A stretch of DNA of 64,000 nt from the NCBI GenBank assembly GCA_964639285.1, contig CAZXCI010000001.1:219757-283756 (forward strand), in the 5' to 3' direction. The DNA comes from an uncultured Candidatus Saccharibacteria bacterium. GTDB lineage: Bacteria > Patescibacteriota > Minisyncoccia > Phycocordibacterales > XYD1-FULL-46-19. Under the pieces are notes generated by a model. The model was given only the letters and a program-made list of their open reading frames with translations. It ran no database searches and had not been told where the DNA came from. Below, in pieces: positions 7,202 through 44,199 of this stretch; position 1 is the stretch's first letter; each line of letters opens with the position of its first letter. The translations under genes were made by a program, and so were the position numbers.

Positions 7202-8422
7202 ATGACAAATATAATCGAAGAACTTAAAGCTCGCGGGCTCGTTGCGCAAGAGACGCATGACGGTAAATTAGGAGAAATTTTGGCGAGAGAGAAAATGGCT
7301 TTCTTTGCCGGCTTTGATCCTTCGGCGGATAGTTTGCATATTGGGAGTTTGGCGCTAATTGTTACAATGACTCGCCTTGCGGGAGCGGGGCACAAGCCGA
7401 TTTTTTTAATGGGTGGAGCGACGGGTCTAATCGGCGATCCGAGTGGAAAAATAGAAACCAGAAAAATGCTTGGTGAAGCCGATGTCGAGCGGAACCTTCA
7501 GTCTATTAAAAAACAAATTGGAAAAATTCTGGGAGATCAAGAACTTCTTTTTGTTAACAATTTTGACTGGCTCAAGAAATTTAATTATCTAGAATTTTTG
7601 CGTAATTACGGCCCCCTTTTTAAGGTTAACGAGATGGTCAAAAGTGAGACCTATCGTGAACGCCTAGAGAAAGAATATGGTCTTACTTTTCTTGAGTTTA
7701 ATTACCTGATTCTTCAGGCGATAGACTATCTTCATCTTTTTGATACCGAAGGTTGTCGTCTGCAAATTGGTGGGAGTGATCAATGGGGCAATATTCTGGC
7801 TGGGGTGGAGCTTGTTCGTCGAGAGCGCCAGACCGAAGCTTATGCTTTTACCATTCCTTTGATCGAGCGTTCGGATGGTAAGAAGATGGGTAAGTCTGAA
7901 GCCGGAGCTGTTTGGCTCGATGCCAAGAAGACTTCCCCTTTCGATTTCTATCAATACTGGGTTAATGTTGACGATAAGGATGTTGGCCGTTTCTTGAAAA
8001 TTTTTACTTTTCTCTCACTTGAAGAAATTGCCGAGCTTGATAAGCTGAGTGGTTCTGAAATTACAGAAGCTAAAGACATCTTAGCTTATGAGGTCACGAA
8101 GTTTGTCCATGGAGAAGAAGAAGCTGAAGAAGCCAAACGTCTTTCTTATGAATTGTTCAGCTTGAGAGGTGCCGGTATTAATTATTTACCTCCAATTAAG
8201 GTCTCTCTTCCTTTGGGAGGCTTGAATATTGTTGATTTTCTTGTTAGTACAGGAATAAGTGATCTCAATTCCAAAAGGAAAGTTCGTGAGTTAATATCAT
8301 CTGGCGGTATTTATCTTGATCTCGAACCAGTAAAGGATTTAAATCTTGTGGTGAAAAAATCAGATTGGACAGTGCTTCTTCGTGTTGGGAAGAAGAAATA
8401 TTATAGAATAGAGGCGAATTAA
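7202..8422 (+). CDS. tyrS: Tyrosyl-tRNA synthetase
   Basis: GFDPSADSLHIGS (HIGH-like) and KMGKS (KMSKS-like) motifs, with a C-terminal S4-like domain. Confidence 0.85.
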   Translation: MTNIIEELKARGLVAQETHDGKLGEILAREKMAFFAGFDPSADSLHIGSLALIVTMTRLAGAGHKPIFLMGGATGLIGDPSGKIETRKMLGEADVERNLQSIKKQIGKILGDQELLFVNNFDWLKKFNYLEFLRNYGPLFKVNEMVKSETYRERLEKEYGLTFLEFNYLILQAIDYLHLFDTEGCRLQIGGSDQWGNILAGVELVRRERQTEAYAFTIPLIERSDGKKMGKSEAGAVWLDAKKTSPFDFYQYWVNVDDKDVGRFLKIFTFLSLEEIAELDKLSGSEITEAKDILAYEVTKFVHGEEEAEEAKRLSYELFSLRGAGINYLPPIKVSLPLGGLNIVDFLVSTGISDLNSKRKVRELISSGGIYLDLEPVKDLNLVVKKSDWTVLLRVGKKKYYRIEAN

Positions 8423-32099: not shown

Positions 32100-32340
32100 T
32101 GGAAATGGTGGTACAATTTTGTATCGTTAGCTCAGACCACAACGCTTGGGGATTCCTAGGTAGCCTAGGATGAAAGAGTGAAAAACTATGGCTTTCTGTC
32201 GATTGGGACGCTGCGAGAGACCGATAACCCAGGCGGTGCGAGCTTGGACCTCGGGGAAATCGCAAATATCCCGAGGCGTAGGGGCGTTCTAGACCCATTT
32301 CCTTTCTTTCCGCCTGGTGGGTTCCGTCAGGCGGTTTTTT
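32100..32340 (+). ncRNA. Candidate structured small RNA or attenuator of about 240 nt, ending in an intrinsic terminator; class unknown
   Basis: No credible ORF; nested helices; ccgcctgg can pair either with the upstream cccaggcgg or with the downstream caggcgg; T-run at 32335-32340. Confidence 0.3.
32312..32340 (+). terminator. Intrinsic terminator (ccgcctg-gtgggttccgt-caggcgg-tttttt)
   Basis: Hairpin followed by a T6 run. Confidence 0.6.
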
Positions 32341-32435
32341 CTTGCCTAAATATTCAAACTATGACAGAAATGGAAGTGGAATAATATTGTGTCGTTTGGA
32401 AAGTTAATCTCAACACCCTGAAAGGAGGTGGCTTT
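32341..32435 (+). promoter_or_regulatory. Leader/promoter region, paralog A (TTGCCTAAATAT...CAGAAAT...)
   Basis: About 70% identical to 38139-38242, which lies upstream of an unrelated gene. Confidence 0.5.
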
Positions 32436-38092: not shown

Positions 38093-38138
38093 TTTTAGCC
38101 GAGGCTCAACCTCGACTTTTGCATTACCTCTTTTCCTT

Positions 38139-38242
38139 GCCTAAATATCCAAATTATGGCAGAAATAGGGGCGGAATTTTGTTTAAAAATTTGTGTTGTT
38201 TGAAAAATCAACCCCTCTTAGAAGGGAGAAAGGGAGACTATT
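38139..38242 (+). promoter_or_regulatory. Leader/promoter region, paralog B
   Basis: Conserved blocks shared with 32341-32435. Confidence 0.5.
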
Positions 38243-38710
38243 ATGAGTACAGGGCTCGGATTTCTCGCATCACTTATCTCGCTAACGGTAGTGTTTTACG
38301 GTTTACCGATACAAATTTTAAAAAACTACCAGAACAGGAGTTGTCGAGGTCTATCTTTGGAGCTGGTCGTGGTGACGTTTTTTGCTTACTCAACCTGGTC
38401 GGCTTACGGTTTGACAAAACCAGACTGGTTTCTTTTCGCTTCGCAAACTCCAGGAGCAATATTGGCCCTTCTGATTATTCTCCAATTTGTGAGGTACGAG
38501 GATCTGGTCAGAAGAATTAAAAAAGTGGCAAGGCAAGGCTGGGAAGACTTTCGTTGTACTTGCCCCAAAGAATGCGATTGCGAGATGCCTAAACCGGATA
38601 ATTGGAAGGGAGGAGAAAGGGTGTGGCGATACAGCAACAATTGCCCCATCCACAATGAGGAACCCGAACCAGACCCAGACTGCCCAATTCATGGAGATGA
38701 ATGGGAATAA
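38243..38710 (+). CDS. PQ-loop (SemiSWEET-like) 3-TM membrane domain fused to a Cys/His-rich C-terminal tail
   Basis: LPIQILKNYQNRSCRGLSL resembles the PQ-loop motif; tail has CTCPKECDCE...CPIH...CPIH. Confidence 0.45.
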   Translation: MSTGLGFLASLISLTVVFYGLPIQILKNYQNRSCRGLSLELVVVTFFAYSTWSAYGLTKPDWFLFASQTPGAILALLIILQFVRYEDLVRRIKKVARQGWEDFRCTCPKECDCEMPKPDNWKGGERVWRYSNNCPIHNEEPEPDPDCPIHGDEWE

Positions 38711-38906: not shown

Positions 38907-40019
38907 TTAAATCTTAAACTCAATCACATCCCCGTCTTTGACGATATATTCTTTGCCCTCAGTACGAACAAGACCTTGCTCACGTGCTTTACCATAAGAA
39001 CCGGCTTTAAGGAGATCTTGCCAATTGATAATCTCAGCTTTGATAAATTTATCATAGAAGTCGGTGTGGATAGCCGTACCAGCCACCGGAGCCGTTGAAT
39101 CTTTCTTTATCGTCCAAGCCCGGGTCTCATCTTCGCCCGTGGTGAGGAAGGTGATGAGTCCCAGCATCTTATAACTTTCTTTGATCAGGTCATTAATACC
39201 GTCATCTTCGACCCCCAACTCTTTTTTGAAGACTTCTTTATCCTCCTTTTCAAGTTCGGATAGCTCCCCCTCAATTTTGGCATCAACTATCACCCAATTC
39301 GCTTTAATCTTACCTAAATAATCAATCAATTCTTGGTTTACCCCGTTAGAAGTAGCTAATTCATTAGCGTTAGTTCTAATGGGGCCAGAGTGCTTGTTAT
39401 TTAGAACATATAGTATAGGTTTGGCCGACAAGAGATGCATCCCCTTAAGAATTTCTTCTTCCTCTTTGGTTAGGGAAACAGAATTGGCCATTTGCCCCTT
39501 TTTCAAAACTTCTTCAATTTTTACCAGAACGGCATGTTCAGCGATAGCTGTCTTGTCTCCCCGCTTCACGTCATGAGCGAGATTGGCAATTCTTTTACTC
39601 ACCGTCTGGTCATCGGCCAAGATCAATTCGAGATTGATAGTCTCAATGTCATCAATTGGGTCAATGCGATCAGAAACGTGAGTAATATTAGAATCTTCAT
39701 AAATTCTTACCACTTCAATAATAGCATCCACTTCACGGATATGGGACAAGAATTTATTTCCTAGCCCTTCGCCGGCCGAAGCTCCTTTCACCAAACCGGC
39801 AATATCTACGAATTCAATGGCCGCCGGGATTCTTTTGGCCGAATGAGAAAAATCAGCGAGAATATCAACACGCTCGTCTGGCACTGCCACAATCCCCACC
39901 GCCGGATCAATAGTACAGAAAGGGTAATTCTCCGCCGGCACCCCCTTCCGCGTCAATGCGTTAAAAAGCGTCGATTTCCCGACATTTGGCAACCCCACAA
40001 TTCCCACCGAAATATTCAT
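38907..40019 (-). CDS. ychF: Ribosome-binding ATPase YchF (Obg-family GTPase)
   Basis: GIVGLPNVGKSTLFNALT...NYPFCTIDP. Confidence 0.85.
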   Translation of the reverse strand: MNISVGIVGLPNVGKSTLFNALTRKGVPAENYPFCTIDPAVGIVAVPDERVDILADFSHSAKRIPAAIEFVDIAGLVKGASAGEGLGNKFLSHIREVDAIIEVVRIYEDSNITHVSDRIDPIDDIETINLELILADDQTVSKRIANLAHDVKRGDKTAIAEHAVLVKIEEVLKKGQMANSVSLTKEEEEILKGMHLLSAKPILYVLNNKHSGPIRTNANELATSNGVNQELIDYLGKIKANWVIVDAKIEGELSELEKEDKEVFKKELGVEDDGINDLIKESYKMLGLITFLTTGEDETRAWTIKKDSTAPVAGTAIHTDFYDKFIKAEIINWQDLLKAGSYGKAREQGLVRTEGKEYIVKDGDVIEFKI

Positions 40020-40063
40020 TCTCTGATTCTATAGAAAAATCAACAAAAAAGCGAGTTACAAAA

Positions 40064-40091
40064 TCCCGCTGGTGCGCATGCGCACCAGCGG
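40064..40091. repeat. Perfect 28-nt GC-rich palindrome cccgctggtgcgcatgcgcaccagcggg (terminator or mini-element)
   Basis: Perfect dyad symmetry. Confidence 0.5.
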
Positions 40092-40118
40092 GACACAACA
40101 TCTCTCAACAAAAAATAA

Positions 40119-41150
40119 TCATTCGATCTCAGCCTCAGGGAAAAGTTGGGAAAAAAGTTCTCTAATAACCTGAACCTCCCTTCCGTCGAGGGAATCGCGT
40201 TTGTTGTCGAAAGGTTTGACATTACCCTCTCTAACTTCACTCATGAGGTAAGCAATCCGAGAGCAGATACCCTTAACGTCGGACATTCGTTGAGGCCTCT
40301 CTTGGATTGTATATTTCTCAGTTTGACGAGAAGATTGCGATCGTTGAAAACTATCCAAGAGTAGTTCCAGCCGTTCCCGCCTAAAATATTCGGGGGAGCA
40401 AACATGAACACCTCCCTGAGATTCACACCAAATAGAATATGCGACCAAATTTTTTGAGATCGGTCTTCCAACAAGAGATGGGTCAAGGGCCTGAGAGAAA
40501 TCGGTAAGGAATTCCAGACGTTGCCTCATCCTTTCTAGGCGTTTCTCTCTTTGTTGCAGAACTTCGTTAACAGTTTTGTAAATCTCTTCCACAATGTGAA
40601 GAGAGAAGGCATAGCGAAAAAAATCGACAAGGAAAAGAGAATTTTCCTCCTCTTCCAAGATTCTCTCCATTTCTTTTCTCTCGTTTTGACCTCGGAAGAA
40701 TTCCTCTTTCCAGGTTATATCAATGTACCCTGAAAACATTTTGCTCAACCCCAAAGAATCTACTTCTACGGCAGAGCAGTACTCCTGACCAGATGGCGAC
40801 AAATTGATAACCCACTCCCCCTTACGATTAAGGCCTAAACGTAAGGAACCTCGACGATAGAGCAACATGACCCTCCTTGGCTCTAAATCTTGAGCTTCAT
40901 CGGAGCCGGGCCAATAATTAAGGGGCCGGTCAAGCCATTGGACAAAGGGGAAGAGAATTTCTAGGAACCCCTGCAAAACTTCGGGGGTTAAACAGGTTCC
41001 TCCCCTTTTTCCCACTCTTTCTGCTAGTCCCAACTGTCTCATTTTTTGAGCAATAGTTAGAACAGGGAAATCATCAGATTCTCTTTTTGTCATGACAATG
41101 ATCCTTTTCTGTTTCGAGGGCGAACCCTCATTTGAGAAAATCCATCCCAA
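40119..41150 (-). CDS. Hypothetical protein, 343 aa, in a locally GC-richer block
   Basis: ORF only. Confidence 0.45.
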   Translation of the reverse strand: MGWIFSNEGSPSKQKRIIVMTKRESDDFPVLTIAQKMRQLGLAERVGKRGGTCLTPEVLQGFLEILFPFVQWLDRPLNYWPGSDEAQDLEPRRVMLLYRRGSLRLGLNRKGEWVINLSPSGQEYCSAVEVDSLGLSKMFSGYIDITWKEEFFRGQNERKEMERILEEEENSLFLVDFFRYAFSLHIVEEIYKTVNEVLQQREKRLERMRQRLEFLTDFSQALDPSLVGRPISKNLVAYSIWCESQGGVHVCSPEYFRRERLELLLDSFQRSQSSRQTEKYTIQERPQRMSDVKGICSRIAYLMSEVREGNVKPFDNKRDSLDGREVQVIRELFSQLFPEAEIE

Positions 41151-41333
41151 TGATGGAATCTAGTCCTATTAATACCCCTAAAAATGATCTTTGTCTAGTT
41201 TGAGAATCTGCTCTGGCTAAAATTCTCAATCTGTGGTAGGAATAAGAGTAGGTTGCAGTTTATTGTTCAAACGATTGCGCTTCTGAAGACGCGTAATCGT
41301 AACAGGAATAAATTCAGGAAAGGAGGAGCCGTC

Positions 41334-41528
41334 ATGTCCAGAAAAGCAAGTTTCCATGTTACCTTGCCAAATGGTACCACTATTACTGTTAGAGCAAGTA
41401 GCCGAAGGGTTGCGATCAATACCCTGTGTGCCAAGTCAGGCTATTCGCTCCAAGAGATTAAAAGCTTTGGTGTCTATGGCTCTGGGGCCCATAGCGGTAA
41501 GAAATCTCGCAAGAAAGTCTATTGGTAG
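41334..41528 (+). CDS. Small basic hypothetical protein, 64 aa
   Basis: ATG preceded by AGGAGGAG; the upstream part of the track ORF lacks a ribosome-binding site. Confidence 0.4.
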   Translation: MSRKASFHVTLPNGTTITVRASSRRVAINTLCAKSGYSLQEIKSFGVYGSGAHSGKKSRKKVYW

Positions 41529-41566
41529 TCGTGGTAACCAGTTACCAACTGGCCGTCGTCATTACG

Positions 41567-41608
41567 GGCCCCGCCAGCACTTCAGTTTGCTGGCGGGGTT
41601 AATTTTTT
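41567..41608 (+). terminator. Intrinsic terminator (ggccccgccagca...tgctggcgggg followed by a T-run)
   Basis: 11-bp GC stem plus ttaatttttt. Confidence 0.6.
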
Positions 41609-41614
41609 ATTTAA

Positions 41615-42166
41615 TTATATTTTCTCATAACGAGCTCCGCCTTTGTCTCCAGTCCGGCGAATTCGCCCAGCCTTAATCAATTCATTAAGATAATTAGTTG
41701 CCGAGGTGTCAGAGACATGCAGAAGTTTTTCCACCATATCATTAGTGATTTGCGATTTTTTTTCGAAGAGGGTCATCAGACGGTCAAGCCTTTTCTTTTT
41801 TCGAATTTGAAAGCCAATTTTGGCTTTAGCCCGAAGCCAAGCCATGAAGCTGGCTGAAGGTTTCATTTGACTATAATCCTCAATTTTTTCTACCGATTTT
41901 GTCTCCCCTGCTGGTACCGTCACTACGACTTGCTCGGTTGAAATGATCGGTTCGTTAATAGTGGTCGGAGTAGGAGCTGGTTCTGGGACAGGTGCTGGCT
42001 CTGGAGATATCGGAGGAGTAACTGGAACTTCTGCCACAGGGGTTTCTGAGACAACCATCGGTTCGGAGATTATCTCTGGAGATACTGCTTCCGAAGTTGG
42101 AGTTACTTCTTCTAGAGTTATTGCTTCTTGAGTTTCAACTGGCTCTATTTTTTCTTCGTCTGCCAT
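41615..42166 (-). CDS. Hypothetical protein with a Pro/Glu/Val-rich linker and a C-terminal winged-helix-like domain
   Basis: ORF; low-complexity PVxEP repeats. Confidence 0.4.
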   Translation of the reverse strand: MADEEKIEPVETQEAITLEEVTPTSEAVSPEIISEPMVVSETPVAEVPVTPPISPEPAPVPEPAPTPTTINEPIISTEQVVVTVPAGETKSVEKIEDYSQMKPSASFMAWLRAKAKIGFQIRKKKRLDRLMTLFEKKSQITNDMVEKLLHVSDTSATNYLNELIKAGRIRRTGDKGGARYEKI

Positions 42167-42174
42167 AATTCTAA

Positions 42175-42402
42175 TTATTTCTTCCCAAAAATTTGGGCCA
42201 ATTCGGCTTGATACTTGGTCGTCACCGCCAAAGCAGCTTCTTGATAACCCATTTTATCCTTCTTCACCCTCTCTTCGATCTCCTCACCCAGTTTCTGGAA
42301 GAGGCCGGGGTTCTTCTTTACCACCTCCATCATTCCTTCTAATTGCGAACCATCTACCCCCATACTCTTCAATTGACGCTTAACAAAAAATTCTTTTAAC
42401 AT
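42175..42402 (-). CDS. Small hypothetical protein (75 aa after start correction; the longer track ORF overlaps the tRNA)
   Basis: ORF. Confidence 0.3.
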   Translation of the reverse strand: MLKEFFVKRQLKSMGVDGSQLEGMMEVVKKNPGLFQKLGEEIEERVKKDKMGYQEAALAVTTKYQAELAQIFGKK

Positions 42403-42485
42403 AAGTTTTGATTTTAAAGATGTTAAGTAATAATTTAAAATCTTAAGTAATACCGTGCTCGCACTGCGAAGCTTCAGCGAAGCAG

Positions 42486-42559
42486 TGGACCGCACCGGGA
42501 TCGAACCGGTTACCTCCCGCTTGCAAAGCGGGTGCTCTAGCCAGATGAGCTAGCGGCCC
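42486..42559 (-). tRNA. tRNA-Ala (anticodon TGC)
   Basis: Cloverleaf GGGCCGC...CCCGC-TTTGCAA-GCGGG...TTCGATC...GCGGTCC-A; Ala-identity G3:U70 pair present. Confidence 0.85.
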
Positions 42560-42605
42560 AACAATCGTAATTAAACCAAATTTTGGGGTAAAAAGGAAGG
42601 AAAAG

Positions 42606-43151
42606 CTATACCCGCCAATTTTCAATTTGTTCTCTAAGCAACAAAATATTGTCAGTGGATTCTTTAATCATTCCCAAAGATGGGCCGTCGGAAAAACCAA
42701 CATACTCTACACTTTTACCCCTAGTCTTGACATAACGAATTGCGGGGATTAGATCCGTATCAGAACTGACGATAATCGCCGTATCATAATTATTCTCGAC
42801 AGCGCCAATCACAAGATCTATCGCAATCTGAACATCAACACCTTTTTCTCTAATTTTATTATCATAGACAACTCGGCCCCGTTTAATTTCAAACCCCTCG
42901 TTTTCCAAACCGCTCAAAAGCTTCTGTTGGCTTTCTACCATCTTTTGACTTTTATCACTTTGATCATAATTCCTTACAATACCAATATAATAATTTTTAG
43001 ACGCAATTCCCCTTTCCCTGGCCAAAAATTGGCAAAATTTAGAGTAATCAAATCTTGTCCCTTTCGGAATGAGATTACCATGGCGAATTTTTCGGAAAAA
43101 ATTCCCACCGTCAATAAATATTGCTACACACTTTTCTTTTTGATCATCCAT
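42606..43151 (-). CDS. NYN-domain (LabA-like) putative RNase
   Basis: IFIDGGNF...DVQIAIDL...SSDTDLIPAI. Confidence 0.65.
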   Translation of the reverse strand: MDDQKEKCVAIFIDGGNFFRKIRHGNLIPKGTRFDYSKFCQFLARERGIASKNYYIGIVRNYDQSDKSQKMVESQQKLLSGLENEGFEIKRGRVVYDNKIREKGVDVQIAIDLVIGAVENNYDTAIIVSSDTDLIPAIRYVKTRGKSVEYVGFSDGPSLGMIKESTDNILLLREQIENWRV

Positions 43152-43261
43152 AAATCAAAAGTATTATATCGCAAATTTTTGATAACCAAAACCGCCCTTA
43201 CTCTTACGAGCAGGGGCGGTGAGGTTAATGTCTTAAATTATAGACCTATTGTCTGAGAAGT

Positions 43262-43310
43262 CAAGGGGCCTTGCCGGGATCGAACCGGCCACCTTTCCTG
43301 TGCAGTCGTA
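43262..43310 (-). pseudogene. tRNA 3'-half remnant (anticodon TGC region to acceptor 3' end) fused to a copy of the upstream flank of tRNA-Ala(TGC)
   Basis: TGCAC-AGGAA-AGGTG-GCCGG-TTCGATC-CCGGC-AAGGCCC-C parses as tRNA positions 34-73; the adjacent 35 nt at 43311-43345 are nearly identical to 42560-42600. Confidence 0.5.
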
Positions 43311-43367
43311 ATTAAACCAAATTTTGGGGCAAAAAGGAAGGTAGATAAGATTTCTCCTCTGCTAAAC

Positions 43368-43397
43368 TTGACAATTCATGCCATTTAGGTGTATAAT
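43368..43397 (+). promoter_or_regulatory. Consensus sigma70 promoter (TTGACA, 18-nt spacer, TATAAT)
   Basis: Hexamers at 43368-43373 and 43392-43397; followed by a GAGAGGAG Shine-Dalgarno sequence. Confidence 0.55.
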
Positions 43398-43464
43398 AAT
43401 AGAGTATCTGAACACAATAAAATTAAATACACCTAGAAACCACAAAAACGAGAGGAGATGAATA

Positions 43465-43836
43465 ATGACCGAAAAGCTTAAGGACGGGTACATTTTGTAC
43501 CAACCTAAGAACCACAAGGTTCTTGTGGTCGATCATTTTGAGGTTTGGGTGGGACTTCCCCTGGACCTCGAGTTCTACGATGCTAGGGCTCGAAATCCGC
43601 GGTATATTGGTCTAAGGGCCGAGACAGACCAAGCTTATGCATGGGTCGATCCAGGAGCCGTGCCTATTATCAAGGCCGACCCAAAGACCTTACTCTTGGC
43701 TCTCGGAAAGAGGACAAGTAAGAGAATGGAGTTCTACTCCGTTTTCATCCCCTCTCAAGAAGACCCGGTCGCTTTCGCGAAGAGTTTCGCGGAAGAGAAA
43801 CTAAGGAGCCTTTACCGGGGAAGAGGCCATCATTAA
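43465..43836 (+). CDS. Hypothetical protein, 123 aa, GC-richer than its surroundings
   Basis: ORF with a consensus promoter and a strong Shine-Dalgarno sequence; roughly 50% GC in a roughly 40% GC context. Confidence 0.5.
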   Translation: MTEKLKDGYILYQPKNHKVLVVDHFEVWVGLPLDLEFYDARARNPRYIGLRAETDQAYAWVDPGAVPIIKADPKTLLLALGKRTSKRMEFYSVFIPSQEDPVAFAKSFAEEKLRSLYRGRGHH

Positions 43837-43906
43837 GAGCCCCCCCCTATCAAGAATCCCGCAAAGGGCGACATCAATGAAAGATGCCGCCCTTTATTTA
43901 TATTTG

Positions 43907-43979
43907 TGGACCATACCGGAATCGAACCGGTCACCTCTCCCATGCCATGGGAGCGCTCTACCAAATGAGCTAATGGCCC
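43907..43979 (-). tRNA. tRNA-Ala (anticodon GGC)
   Basis: GGGCCAT...CTCCC-ATGGCAT-GGGAG...TTCGATT...ATGGTCC-A; G3:U70 present. Confidence 0.85.
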
Positions 43980-44040
43980 TTTGTTAATTTATCTCATCTT
44001 TCAAAAATCTTCTCCCCGCTGAACTTTTTAAATACAACGT

Positions 44041-44110
44041 AAGGCGGGCGCTCCCCGCCCGACTGAACGATTTCAGTCGTTCGGGCGGGTACCAAATGAG
44101 CTAATGGCCC
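44041..44110 (-). pseudogene. Partial duplicate of the tRNA-Ala(GGC) 5' end (21 nt identical), interrupted by a 36-nt GC-rich hairpin
   Basis: GGGCCATTAGCTCATTTGGTA + cccgcccgaacgactgaaatcgttcagtcgggcggg + GAGCGC... Confidence 0.45.
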
Positions 44111-44151
44111 TTACGCCCGTTATATTACCAAACTTTCCTCCCTTTGTGAAG

Positions 44152-44184
44152 TAAAATAAAACCCCCAAACTGGGGGTTTTATTT
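44152..44184. terminator. Bidirectional intrinsic terminator (aaaacccccaaactgggggtttt)
   Basis: Perfect hairpin flanked by A-runs and T-runs. Confidence 0.6.
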
Positions 44185-44199
44185 TACGATCGCTAGTCT

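Follow-up and report, generated by a model that had tools for sequence, protein, structure and literature searches.

Relics of recombination at two tRNA-Ala genes of an uncultured Candidatus Saccharibacteria bacterium

How do partial copies of tRNA genes come to lie beside intact ones? We addressed this question for a locus of an uncultured Candidatus Saccharibacteria bacterium (assembly GCA_964639285.1, contig CAZXCI010000001.1, positions 219,757–283,756 of the forward strand; this whole stretch of 64,000 nt is called the window in the following). At positions 42486–44184 of the window, two complete tRNA-Ala genes with the anticodons GGC and TGC are accompanied by a 5' and a 3' piece of a tRNA, a duplicated flank, a GC-rich palindrome, a gene for an NYN domain protein and a gene for a protein of 123 amino acids (aa). 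All tRNA-related features of the locus lie on the minus strand. A preliminary description of the sequence had seen here a relic of integration or recombination at tRNA genes, in which the 123-aa gene would be the surviving cargo of a decayed island. The features it listed all exist, exceed chance expectation and recur in independent assemblies, with small corrections to their coordinates.

We propose that the segment between the two paralogous tRNA-Ala genes is probably a hotspot of gene exchange and that recombination or break repair, in two or more events within this lineage, left the tRNA pieces behind as dead by-products. Sequence comparison supports reading the pieces as non-functional, lineage-specific relics of rearrangement at tRNA genes: their similarity to tRNAs is partial, elements of tRNA structure and identity have been lost, and they occur in this lineage only. 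The locus is a familiar kind of genome scar, found here in an unusually legible state. The arrangement is not an assembly artefact, since both halves of the locus recur with 0–1 mismatches in independent Logan assemblies derived from other sequencing runs: positions 44199–43950 were reproduced with 0 mismatches, positions 40611–43638 and 39257–43426 with 0–1 mismatches. A variant strain represented in the independent assemblies differs from the window locus by 11 single-nucleotide polymorphisms and one homopolymer indel.

The locus in related genomes

YchF, NYN and further proteins assign the window to the Patescibacteria (Paceibacterota-like). As relatives we used the contigs of the closest homologues of YchF (81–94% identity); the backbone comparison covers L087, L088/L089, L091, L086 and L093/L094. 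The backbone consists of a histidine kinase, a response regulator, Ddl, a surface protein, tRNA-Ala(GGC), a variable segment, tRNA-Ala(TGC), a 75-aa gene, a second variable segment and YchF. The slot between the tRNA-Ala genes differs in every genome compared. It is occupied by a 79-aa GIY-YIG gene alone in L087, by an ABC transporter, a 166-aa open reading frame (ORF) and a 78-aa GIY-YIG gene in L088/L089, by two small ORFs in L091, and by a 146-aa ORF, a homologue of the 123-aa gene and MscL in L093/L094. Partial tRNA copies were found in none of the relatives' loci (L086–L098), so the fragments are specific to the lineage of the window; no relative keeps the arrangement as a set of conserved functional pieces. 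Empty sites were found for both sides of the locus, in L098 for the TGC side and in L094, L091 and L087 for the GGC side. With the pieces absent and the empty sites present in relatives, the earlier reading of the locus as a relic of recombination at tRNA genes was borne out.

Intact GIY-YIG genes of 78–79 aa abut tRNA-Ala(TGC) in L087, L088 and L089, and their assignment to PF01541 was confirmed with E values of 2e-19 and 6e-12 (L087, L088/L089). For the relative found through P0136, a gene listing shows a further GIY-YIG ORF at the equivalent position ahead of YchF, possibly next to a tRNA. At the same locus this relative has a primase-polymerase gene and a gene for a 513-aa serine recombinase upstream of the surface-protein gene, which indicates that larger mobile elements also use the neighbourhood. 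Two other candidates were discarded. A LAGLIDADG-type endonuclease seen by eye upstream of tRNA-Ala(GGC) in L088 received no support from Pfam and is not claimed, and a group I intron carrying a GIY-YIG gene within a tRNA was rejected because a complete tRNA comes after the nuclease gene in the relatives.

tRNA-Ala(GGC) and its 5' fragment

The intact tRNA-Ala(GGC) was confirmed at 43907–43979 by ARAGORN and by Rfam (60.1 bits) and is orthologous to the copies of L087 and L094 (90% identity). An exact repeat of 23 nt is shared by this gene and the 5' fragment: positions 43959–43981, which comprise tRNA positions 1–21 and two upstream nt, are identical to positions 44090–44112 (minus strand; tRNA positions −2 to 21; repeat finder, BLAST E 1e-7). 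Between tRNA positions 21 and 22, in the D-loop, the fragment is broken by a 36-nt GC-rich palindrome (44054–44089, inverted repeat I16). Fragment and hairpin are thus as the preliminary description had given them. On the other side of the palindrome the dead 5' portion ends with GAGCGC, which equals tRNA positions 22–27, followed by CCGCCTTACG (44038–44053, minus strand, read from the sequence); past position 27 it degenerates into this 10-nt stretch.

Upstream of the fragment the minus strand carries the promoter TTCACA-17-TAATAT with a TG motif 5' of the −10 element (44122–44150, promoter scan). It is preceded by a perfect 17-bp hairpin (44151–44187, inverted repeat I4), the terminator of the upstream 441-aa surface-protein gene; weak Rfam matches to ohsC and to a Phe leader coincide with this hairpin. 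When aligned with L094, L091 and L087, terminator hairpin, −35 element CTTCACA, −10 element TA(A/T)TAT and tRNA start follow each other in the same order. Both promoter elements are conserved in L094 and L091, and L091 has a hairpin at the equivalent position. The alignment places the 5' fragment at the position of the native gene, and we take it to mark the original site of tRNA-Ala(GGC). The intact gene now lies 131 nt downstream of the native promoter. Since a promoter scan of the minus strand from 44040 to 43980 revealed no promoter-like site for it, the working tRNA-Ala(GGC) is probably transcribed from the old promoter (44150–44122) with a 131-nt relic leader.

The DNA between the 5' fragment and the intact gene (43980–44035, minus strand) had been overlooked before. 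Comparison with L088 and L087 identified it as what remains of a GIY-YIG gene, its last ~16 codons, together with the spacer between this gene and a tRNA. It is identical to the 3' end of the GIY-YIG gene of L088 and its spacer to tRNA-Ala(TGC) at 46 of 55 positions (84%), with an alignment score of 65 as compared to 16.4 ± 2.5 for shuffled sequences, none of which reached 65 in 1000 trials. The core of the relic, GTATTTAAAAAGTTC..CGGG, shares 18 of 21 positions with the gene of L087.

The palindrome occurs as a single copy within the window. With one mismatch it is also present in L096/L097: a homologue of the 123-aa gene lies upstream of it there, the relative orientation of the two is as in the window, the flanks are unrelated, and on the minus strand a T tract comes next. 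Rfam contains no match to the palindrome or to the tRNA fragments. The palindrome could be a relic terminator, a small mobile element or the product of template switching. Its GC-rich, perfect-ended 36-nt palindromic form, its presence in two genomes with unrelated flanks and the T tract in L096 resemble both intrinsic terminators and palindromes like repetitive extragenic palindromic (REP) sequences or miniature inverted-repeat transposable elements (MITEs). It differs in that there is one copy in 64 kb and that both contexts are downstream of the 123-aa family, so that shared ancestry is as likely as mobility.

From these observations the history of the GGC side can be sketched as follows. 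The original tRNA-Ala(GGC) would have lain directly behind its promoter, at 44110. A unit of GIY-YIG gene and tRNA-Ala, as still intact in relatives, would have joined in via the shared 5' sequence of the tRNAs, so that the nuclease gene and a complete tRNA came to follow the old 5' portion (positions 1–27). The palindrome would have broken the old 5' portion later or simultaneously, and the nuclease gene would then have been deleted to its last ~55 nt. As the outcome, the working tRNA-Ala(GGC) would be expressed from the old promoter and its relic leader removed by normal 5' processing.

tRNA-Ala(TGC), the duplicated flank and the NYN cassette

The intact tRNA-Ala(TGC) was found at 42486–42559, as had been described, by ARAGORN and Rfam (60.6 bits). 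It has G3:U70 and A73, and the CCA end is not encoded. The absence of an encoded CCA applies to the window tRNA-Ala genes in general, and differs from most of the tRNA-Ala genes of the relatives (L086–L094), which do encode it. The tRNA-Ala(TGC) of the window is 76–84% identical to the copies of the relatives, which are 84–96% identical to one another. All three tRNA-Ala-like copies of the window have the T-stem CCGG/CCGG, as compared to GCGG/CCGC in the relatives. Such a lineage-specific T-stem in three copies indicates an exchange between the tRNA-Ala paralogues (concerted evolution), and together with the divergence of tRNA-Ala(TGC) it suggests gene conversion or replacement.

The sequence directly 5' of tRNA-Ala(TGC) is present twice on the minus strand, at 42562–42600 and at 43303–43341 (39 nt with 95% identity in the repeat finder; 36 nt, 97%, E 5e-13 in a BLAST search against the window). 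The existence of this repeat had been recognized correctly, the second copy having been placed about 4–8 nt off. Copy 1 begins 5 nt past the stop codon of the NYN gene, and copy 2 adjoins the divergent promoter of the 123-aa gene. By eye, the flank contains an extended −10 element, TGGTTTAAT, about 10 nt before the tRNA, and it is conserved 5' of tRNA-Ala(TGC) in L086 (96% over 28 nt) and in L098. We infer that it is the promoter region of tRNA-Ala(TGC).

L098 shows the ancestral arrangement of this side. The contig runs from inside tRNA-Ala(TGC) via the same flank (CCTTCCTTTTTGCCCCAAAATTTG.TTTAATTA) to a promoter TTGACA-18-TATAAT and a homologue of the 123-aa gene, with positions 2–88 matching the tRNA and flank copy 1 of the window and positions 57–399 matching flank copy 2 and the 123-aa gene. 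Copy 2 is therefore the one in the ancestral place, and the continuous order of tRNA-Ala(TGC), flank, promoter and 123-aa homologue makes L098 the empty site for the NYN insertion. Compared to L098 the window has ~702 extra nt plus the second flank copy; the extra DNA consists of the NYN gene with promoter and leader hairpin, and of the tRNA 3' portion.

The 123-aa gene itself (43465–43836, plus strand) is preceded by a consensus sigma-70-type promoter TTGACA-18-TATAAT (43368–43397, plus strand), which matches at 12 of 12 positions, and by a GGAGA Shine-Dalgarno sequence at ~43453–43459. Its GC content of 0.503 and its GC3 of 0.565 are the highest among 28 window genes. Promoter, Shine-Dalgarno sequence and GC content of about 50% are thus as first described. 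A word-indexed homology search matched the protein only to itself, and an exhaustive search yielded 27 remote homologues (best E 5e-23), so that its status as an orphan is ruled out. The closest one, P0243, is encoded on L098 and is 63% identical over 65 aligned residues. With the homologue alignment, AlphaFold predicted a small beta-barrel with a C-terminal helix, faintly resembling an OB fold (oligonucleotide/oligosaccharide-binding), at a pLDDT of 93 and a pTM of 0.84; the single-sequence prediction reached a pLDDT of 45. Fold searches among solved and viral structures gave no significant match, the insignificant ones being mostly single-strand binders with OB folds, and neither Pfam nor PHROG contains a family for the protein. 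The ORF is best regarded as encoding a genuine protein with a confidently predicted fold, from a small family that has no name.

Members of this family lie between both tRNA-Ala genes in the window and in L093/L094, beside tRNA-Ala(TGC) in L098, and near tRNA-Asp, not tRNA-Ala, in a fourth lineage, the one locus that a metagenome scan with a reduced alignment of the family recovered. The continuity of L098 and the homologue between the tRNA-Ala genes of L093/L094 argue that the 123-aa gene is an older neighbour of tRNA-Ala(TGC). Its proposed role as surviving island cargo finds no support, and the actual insert is the NYN cassette. A hairpin between the convergent 123-aa gene and tRNA-Ala(GGC) (43863–43895, inverted repeat I15, 13-nt arms with 92% complementarity) is probably a bidirectional terminator. 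Just 3' of the stop codon of the 123-aa gene, at 43840–43850, there is a run of eight C that differs by 1 base between strains in the independent assemblies, which may reflect slippage in the homopolymer or an artefact of sequencing.

The NYN (LabA-like) domain gene lies where it had been reported, between the intact tRNA-Ala(TGC) and the 3' piece (42606–43151, minus strand, 181 aa). It matches PF01936 with E 8e-23 and 81.9 bits, compared to a gathering cutoff of 24.2, and its GC content of 0.372 is the lowest of 28 window genes. The promoter of the cassette, TTGACT-16-TATAAT (43237–43264, minus strand), matches the consensus at 11 of 12 positions in the promoter scan. It is followed on the same strand by a leader hairpin (43184–43230; alignment A2, covariance model R1) with a GNRA loop and an internal loop and then a U tract. 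Covariance model R1 places this hairpin 5' of NYN genes in 61 loci. Ten of its 11 pairs covary, 97% of cells are paired, and in L006–L085 it is located ~20–90 nt upstream of each NYN gene.

A genome scan based on the NYN gene recovered 80 loci, which we used to define the cassette. In 11 of 11 aligned NYN loci homology begins at the −35 hexamer of the NYN promoter, which gives the left boundary. NYN homologues of 55–77% identity lie in unrelated contexts, with different neighbours in every relative, and none of the 80 loci is syntenic with the locus of the window; in some relatives the gene is located just downstream of other tRNA genes (His in L021, Ala in L042, Asn in L044). The start of homology at the −35 element, the differing neighbours and the leader in 61 loci lead us to regard promoter, leader and gene as a self-contained newcomer and as the insert on the TGC side.

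The second tRNA relic, a decayed 3' part corresponding to about positions 33–73, lies at 43265–43306 (minus strand; repeat finder, BLAST, tRNA-register comparison). It is fused to flank copy 2 on one end and abuts the NYN promoter on the other. In the tRNA register it is identical to tRNA-Ala(TGC) at 28 of 42 positions and to tRNA-Ala(GGC) at 31 of 42 (about 70%), and it shares with the intact tRNA-Ala genes an exact T-arm core of 15 nt. The T-arm is perfectly paired, including a G49-C65 pair; the acceptor strand is AAGGCCC with a discriminator C. G3:U70 and A73 are lost. The Rfam tRNA model gives the piece no score, even with truncation allowed or at the sequence end, and recognizes the T-arm alone. 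The similarity to a tRNA had therefore been noted rightly, whereas the statement that the piece parses cleanly as the 3' half of a tRNA with a TGC anticodon went too far: the TGC straddles the junction with the duplicated flank and may be a junction artefact.

Could the two pieces be functional rather than dead? One version of this explanation is a split tRNA, in which 44110–44038 and 43306–43265 are joined in trans; others are tRNA-like regulatory or processing signals, or a structured leader that controls the expression of tRNA-Ala(GGC) or of the NYN gene. In Nanoarchaeum equitans the 5' and 3' pieces of split tRNA genes are encoded apart, and the window likewise has separate 5' and 3' tRNA-like pieces, each directly behind a promoter. 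A co-fold of the two pieces is cloverleaf-like at −32.1 kcal/mol, close to the −33 and −36 kcal/mol of real tRNA halves, the acceptor pairs at 6 of 7 positions, and the T-arm is intact as described above; in addition, the leader region folds better than shuffled sequences (z = −3.5). In the tRNA register, however, the anticodon stem forms 1 of 5 pairs, and the co-fold uses a stem outside this register, whose 14-nt loop has no anticodon. Unlike the pieces of N. equitans, those of the window have no complementary leader or trailer sequences for joining and no conservation, and they reside in a bacterium; to our knowledge bacteria do not possess a splicing endonuclease that joins split tRNAs. The loss of the alanine identity elements, the rejection of the 3' piece by the tRNA model and the absence of both pieces from all relatives also speak against function. 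We therefore consider functional elements extremely unlikely, and a split tRNA is ruled out by the missing anticodon stem and identity elements and the lack of conservation.

The 3' piece and the flank fused to it have diverged to a different extent: 2 of 39 positions distinguish the two copies of the flank, and 12 of 40 distinguish the 3' piece from tRNA-Ala(TGC) (Fisher p = 0.006). This pattern would arise because the flank, which holds the extended −10 element, is conserved as a promoter, and the tRNA piece is decayed or foreign. Two origins are conceivable for the piece: a resident tRNA-Ala was duplicated and one copy decayed, or a different tRNA lay ahead of the NYN gene at an earlier site and left its tail. 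The T-stem of the piece, CCGG/CCGG as in both intact genes, favours the former; its contact with the NYN promoter, the G49-C65 pair and the differing acceptor strand favour the latter.

The relics might also have formed by plain tandem duplication and decay, i.e. unequal crossing-over or slippage between the tRNA-Ala genes, independent of a nuclease. Redundant promoter-tRNA copies would have been eroded by microhomology deletions (for example at the TTG found in the flank and at tRNA positions 33–35), and the NYN gene and the GIY-YIG relic would merely have been caught between the copies. The two tRNA-Ala genes do share long identical 5' stretches besides the T-stem, and there is TTG/CTG microhomology at the junction of flank and 3' piece. 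It leaves unexplained why the NYN gene, which all relatives have at other places, sits precisely between the two flank copies, and why the 3' piece has diverged far more than the flank. This explanation overlaps largely with the one we prefer, differing in the trigger alone, and we regard it as conceivable but unlikely.

Under the reading as by-products of recombination or break repair, the TGC side would have started from the order 75-aa gene, tRNA-Ala(TGC), promoter flank, 123-aa gene. The self-contained NYN cassette would have been inserted with a tRNA 3' portion at its upstream end, and the 39-nt promoter flank would have been duplicated in the process. One flank copy would now drive the working tRNA, the other being fused to the dead 3' portion.

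An insert between direct repeats next to a tRNA gene is also what an integrase would leave. The fragments would then be attL and attR scars of an island that lost its integrase and retained the 123-aa or the NYN gene as cargo; in a weaker form, the NYN segment of 741 nt, including the direct repeats of 39 nt, would be a non-autonomous element served in trans by an integrase encoded elsewhere. Besides the direct repeats, the slot that varies in all relatives, the large serine recombinase and primase-polymerase a few kb off in one of them, and the outlying base composition of both genes would fit. As in tRNA-integrated islands and prophages, tRNA genes bracket a variable, exchanged segment, direct repeats lie at the insert and relatives have empty sites. 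Integrases that target tRNA genes duplicate the tRNA 3' end, so that an att-type scar is a near-identical copy of this end. The repeats of the window are instead the promoter flank (39 nt) and the tRNA 5' end (23 nt), and the 3' piece, with about 70% identity to either tRNA, is no copy of the adjacent one. The preliminary description had stated that no integrase is present, and a Pfam scan of 17 ORFs between 27985 and 58475 (excluding ORFs beyond this range and a few small ones) agrees with it. The 123-aa gene is ancestral beside the tRNA in L098 and L093/L094, and viral contigs gave no match for the 3' piece, the palindrome or, in a search with a reduced alignment, the 123-aa family. Of the three hallmarks of an integrase-borne element, the empty sites are present, and a recombinase and a near-identical tRNA 3' repeat are missing. 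We consider an integrase-mediated origin very doubtful, and the classification of the fragments as integrase-type scars was not upheld.

Possible trigger of the rearrangements and comparison to known systems

Break repair or unequal recombination, possibly triggered by a GIY-YIG nuclease, is favoured because GIY-YIG genes abut tRNA-Ala in several relatives and because at the relic junction a tRNA 5' part meets the 3' end of a nuclease gene; the phage enzyme SegB, described below, is a published precedent. The sequences show a rearrangement anchored on paralogous tRNA genes, with its ancestral arrangements, its boundaries, the identity of the relics and their absence from relatives. We infer the order of events described above, and they would have been triggered by double-strand breaks, with the small GIY-YIG nuclease as a candidate agent.

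Several points weigh against this explanation. The nearest relative with usable DNA has a YchF identity of 94% and a contig of 3.8 kb, so that the order of events and the mechanism are reconstructions. In the relatives the GIY-YIG gene precedes tRNA-Ala(TGC) and not tRNA-Ala(GGC), and therefore an extra exchange between the paralogues must be assumed. The GIY-YIG proteins of the relatives are catalytic domains of 78–79 aa without a DNA-binding domain, and are putative site-specific or homing nucleases. A 39-nt direct repeat around an insert is a product of site-specific integration as well. Finally, the 3' piece has two candidate origins, a tRNA-Ala duplicate and the tail of a different tRNA, and the palindrome, known from two contexts, may be a small mobile element or a relic terminator, or may have arisen through template switching.

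A full-length SegB-like enzyme has ~200 aa or more, with the catalytic domain linked to a DNA-binding domain. SegB is a free-standing GIY-YIG endonuclease encoded among the tRNA genes of T-even phages, and its homologues are statistically enriched near tRNA genes (PMC13096335; PMC2988022). At the junction of a duplication caused by SegB, the 5' region of a tRNA gene is joined to the 3' region of the nuclease gene (PMC13096335). The relatives of the window resemble this system in that a GIY-YIG gene lies immediately beside tRNA genes, and the window itself in that a tRNA 5' part is fused to a nuclease 3' end, the footprint alone being seen. The differences are that the window is part of a bacterial chromosome, that the putative nucleases of the relatives comprise the catalytic domain only, and that the 55-nt relic is all that survives in the window. 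The polarity is opposite, too: tRNA 5' part, nuclease 3' end and full tRNA follow each other in the window, as compared to a truncated segB followed by tRNA repeats in the phage.

The locus likewise resembles tRNA pseudogenes that result from recombination or conversion between paralogues, with which it shares partial copies, lost identity elements, absence in relatives and concerted evolution. It differs in that its fragments are fused to identifiable foreign pieces (the GIY-YIG relic, the palindrome and the NYN cassette), and the events can therefore be reconstructed.

The mobile-element biology of uncultured Patescibacteria is poorly known, and since the relatives supply both empty sites, the locus provides a detailed worked example of tRNA genes as recombination anchors in their very small genomes. 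It also illustrates hazards for annotation: pseudo-tRNA pieces, a working tRNA whose probable promoter lies 131 nt off, beyond relic DNA, and an apparent orphan ORF of 123 aa that belongs to a real, confidently folding family. By analogy to phage SegB, for which nuclease-triggered rearrangement was recently shown, the small GIY-YIG genes beside tRNA-Ala hint that such rearrangement may also shape bacterial chromosomes. A broader version, which we think distinctly unlikely to hold, is that paired tRNA-Ala genes in Paceibacteria-like Patescibacteria serve as a landing pad for single-gene cassettes with their own promoters and with target duplications of 26–39 bp, possibly driven by breaks made by the 78-aa GIY-YIG protein. 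Examples would be the NYN cassette with its leader RNA, the 166-aa ORF of L088 and the 123-aa family. If true, the landing pad would be a chromosomal counterpart of the rearrangement driven by SegB in phages and an unrecognized route of gene exchange in reduced genomes.

As a side product, the analysis revealed that the NYN/LabA-like RNase gene has a leader RNA with strong covariation that had not been described before. Rfam contains no family for this leader, and it may serve as an attenuator or as a target of autoregulation by the RNase. Its layout in the window (43184–43264, minus strand) consists of the promoter, then the hairpin ATTAAC..CAC(Y)(R)CC..GNRA..GG(Y)(R)G, and the U tract.

Further observations concern the neighbourhood of the tRNA genes. 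Wherever a relative has kept the locus, the 75-aa gene (42175–42402, minus strand; 41–92% identity) is located 3' of tRNA-Ala(TGC). It follows the tRNA immediately in L087 and L088/L089 and is separated from it by another gene in L086, L091 and L093. L092 has a copy ~6.5 kb upstream of YchF with no tRNA nearby. In Pfam the gene has a sub-threshold match to a family of phage late-transcription coactivators (E 3e-4). In L088, just upstream of the GIY-YIG gene, 26-nt direct repeats (7592–7617 and 8247–8272) surround a segment of 655 nt whose single ORF, of 166 aa, lies on the other strand. L086 has an intact ABC-ATPase gene, and the repeat is a relic of the 3' end of such a gene. This insertion resembles the NYN insertion of the window in comprising a single gene with a duplicated target. 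GC-rich, apparently structured stretches of ~120–150 nt are found between the surface-protein gene and tRNA-Ala(GGC) in L087 (8990–9110) and L088 (3750–3900); they are absent from the window and correspond to no Rfam family at gathering score.

A repeated promoter or 5'-UTR (untranslated region) element of ~80–115 nt with 78–80% identity, CTTGCCTAAATATyCAAAyTATGrCAGAAAT..., occurs at 38129–38246 and 32336–32411 of the window and at 614–727 of L096. It precedes three unrelated small genes, a 155-aa MtN3/PQ-loop gene (38243), a 124-aa ORF (32436) and a 103-aa ORF (L096), and is possibly a shared regulatory RNA or promoter module.

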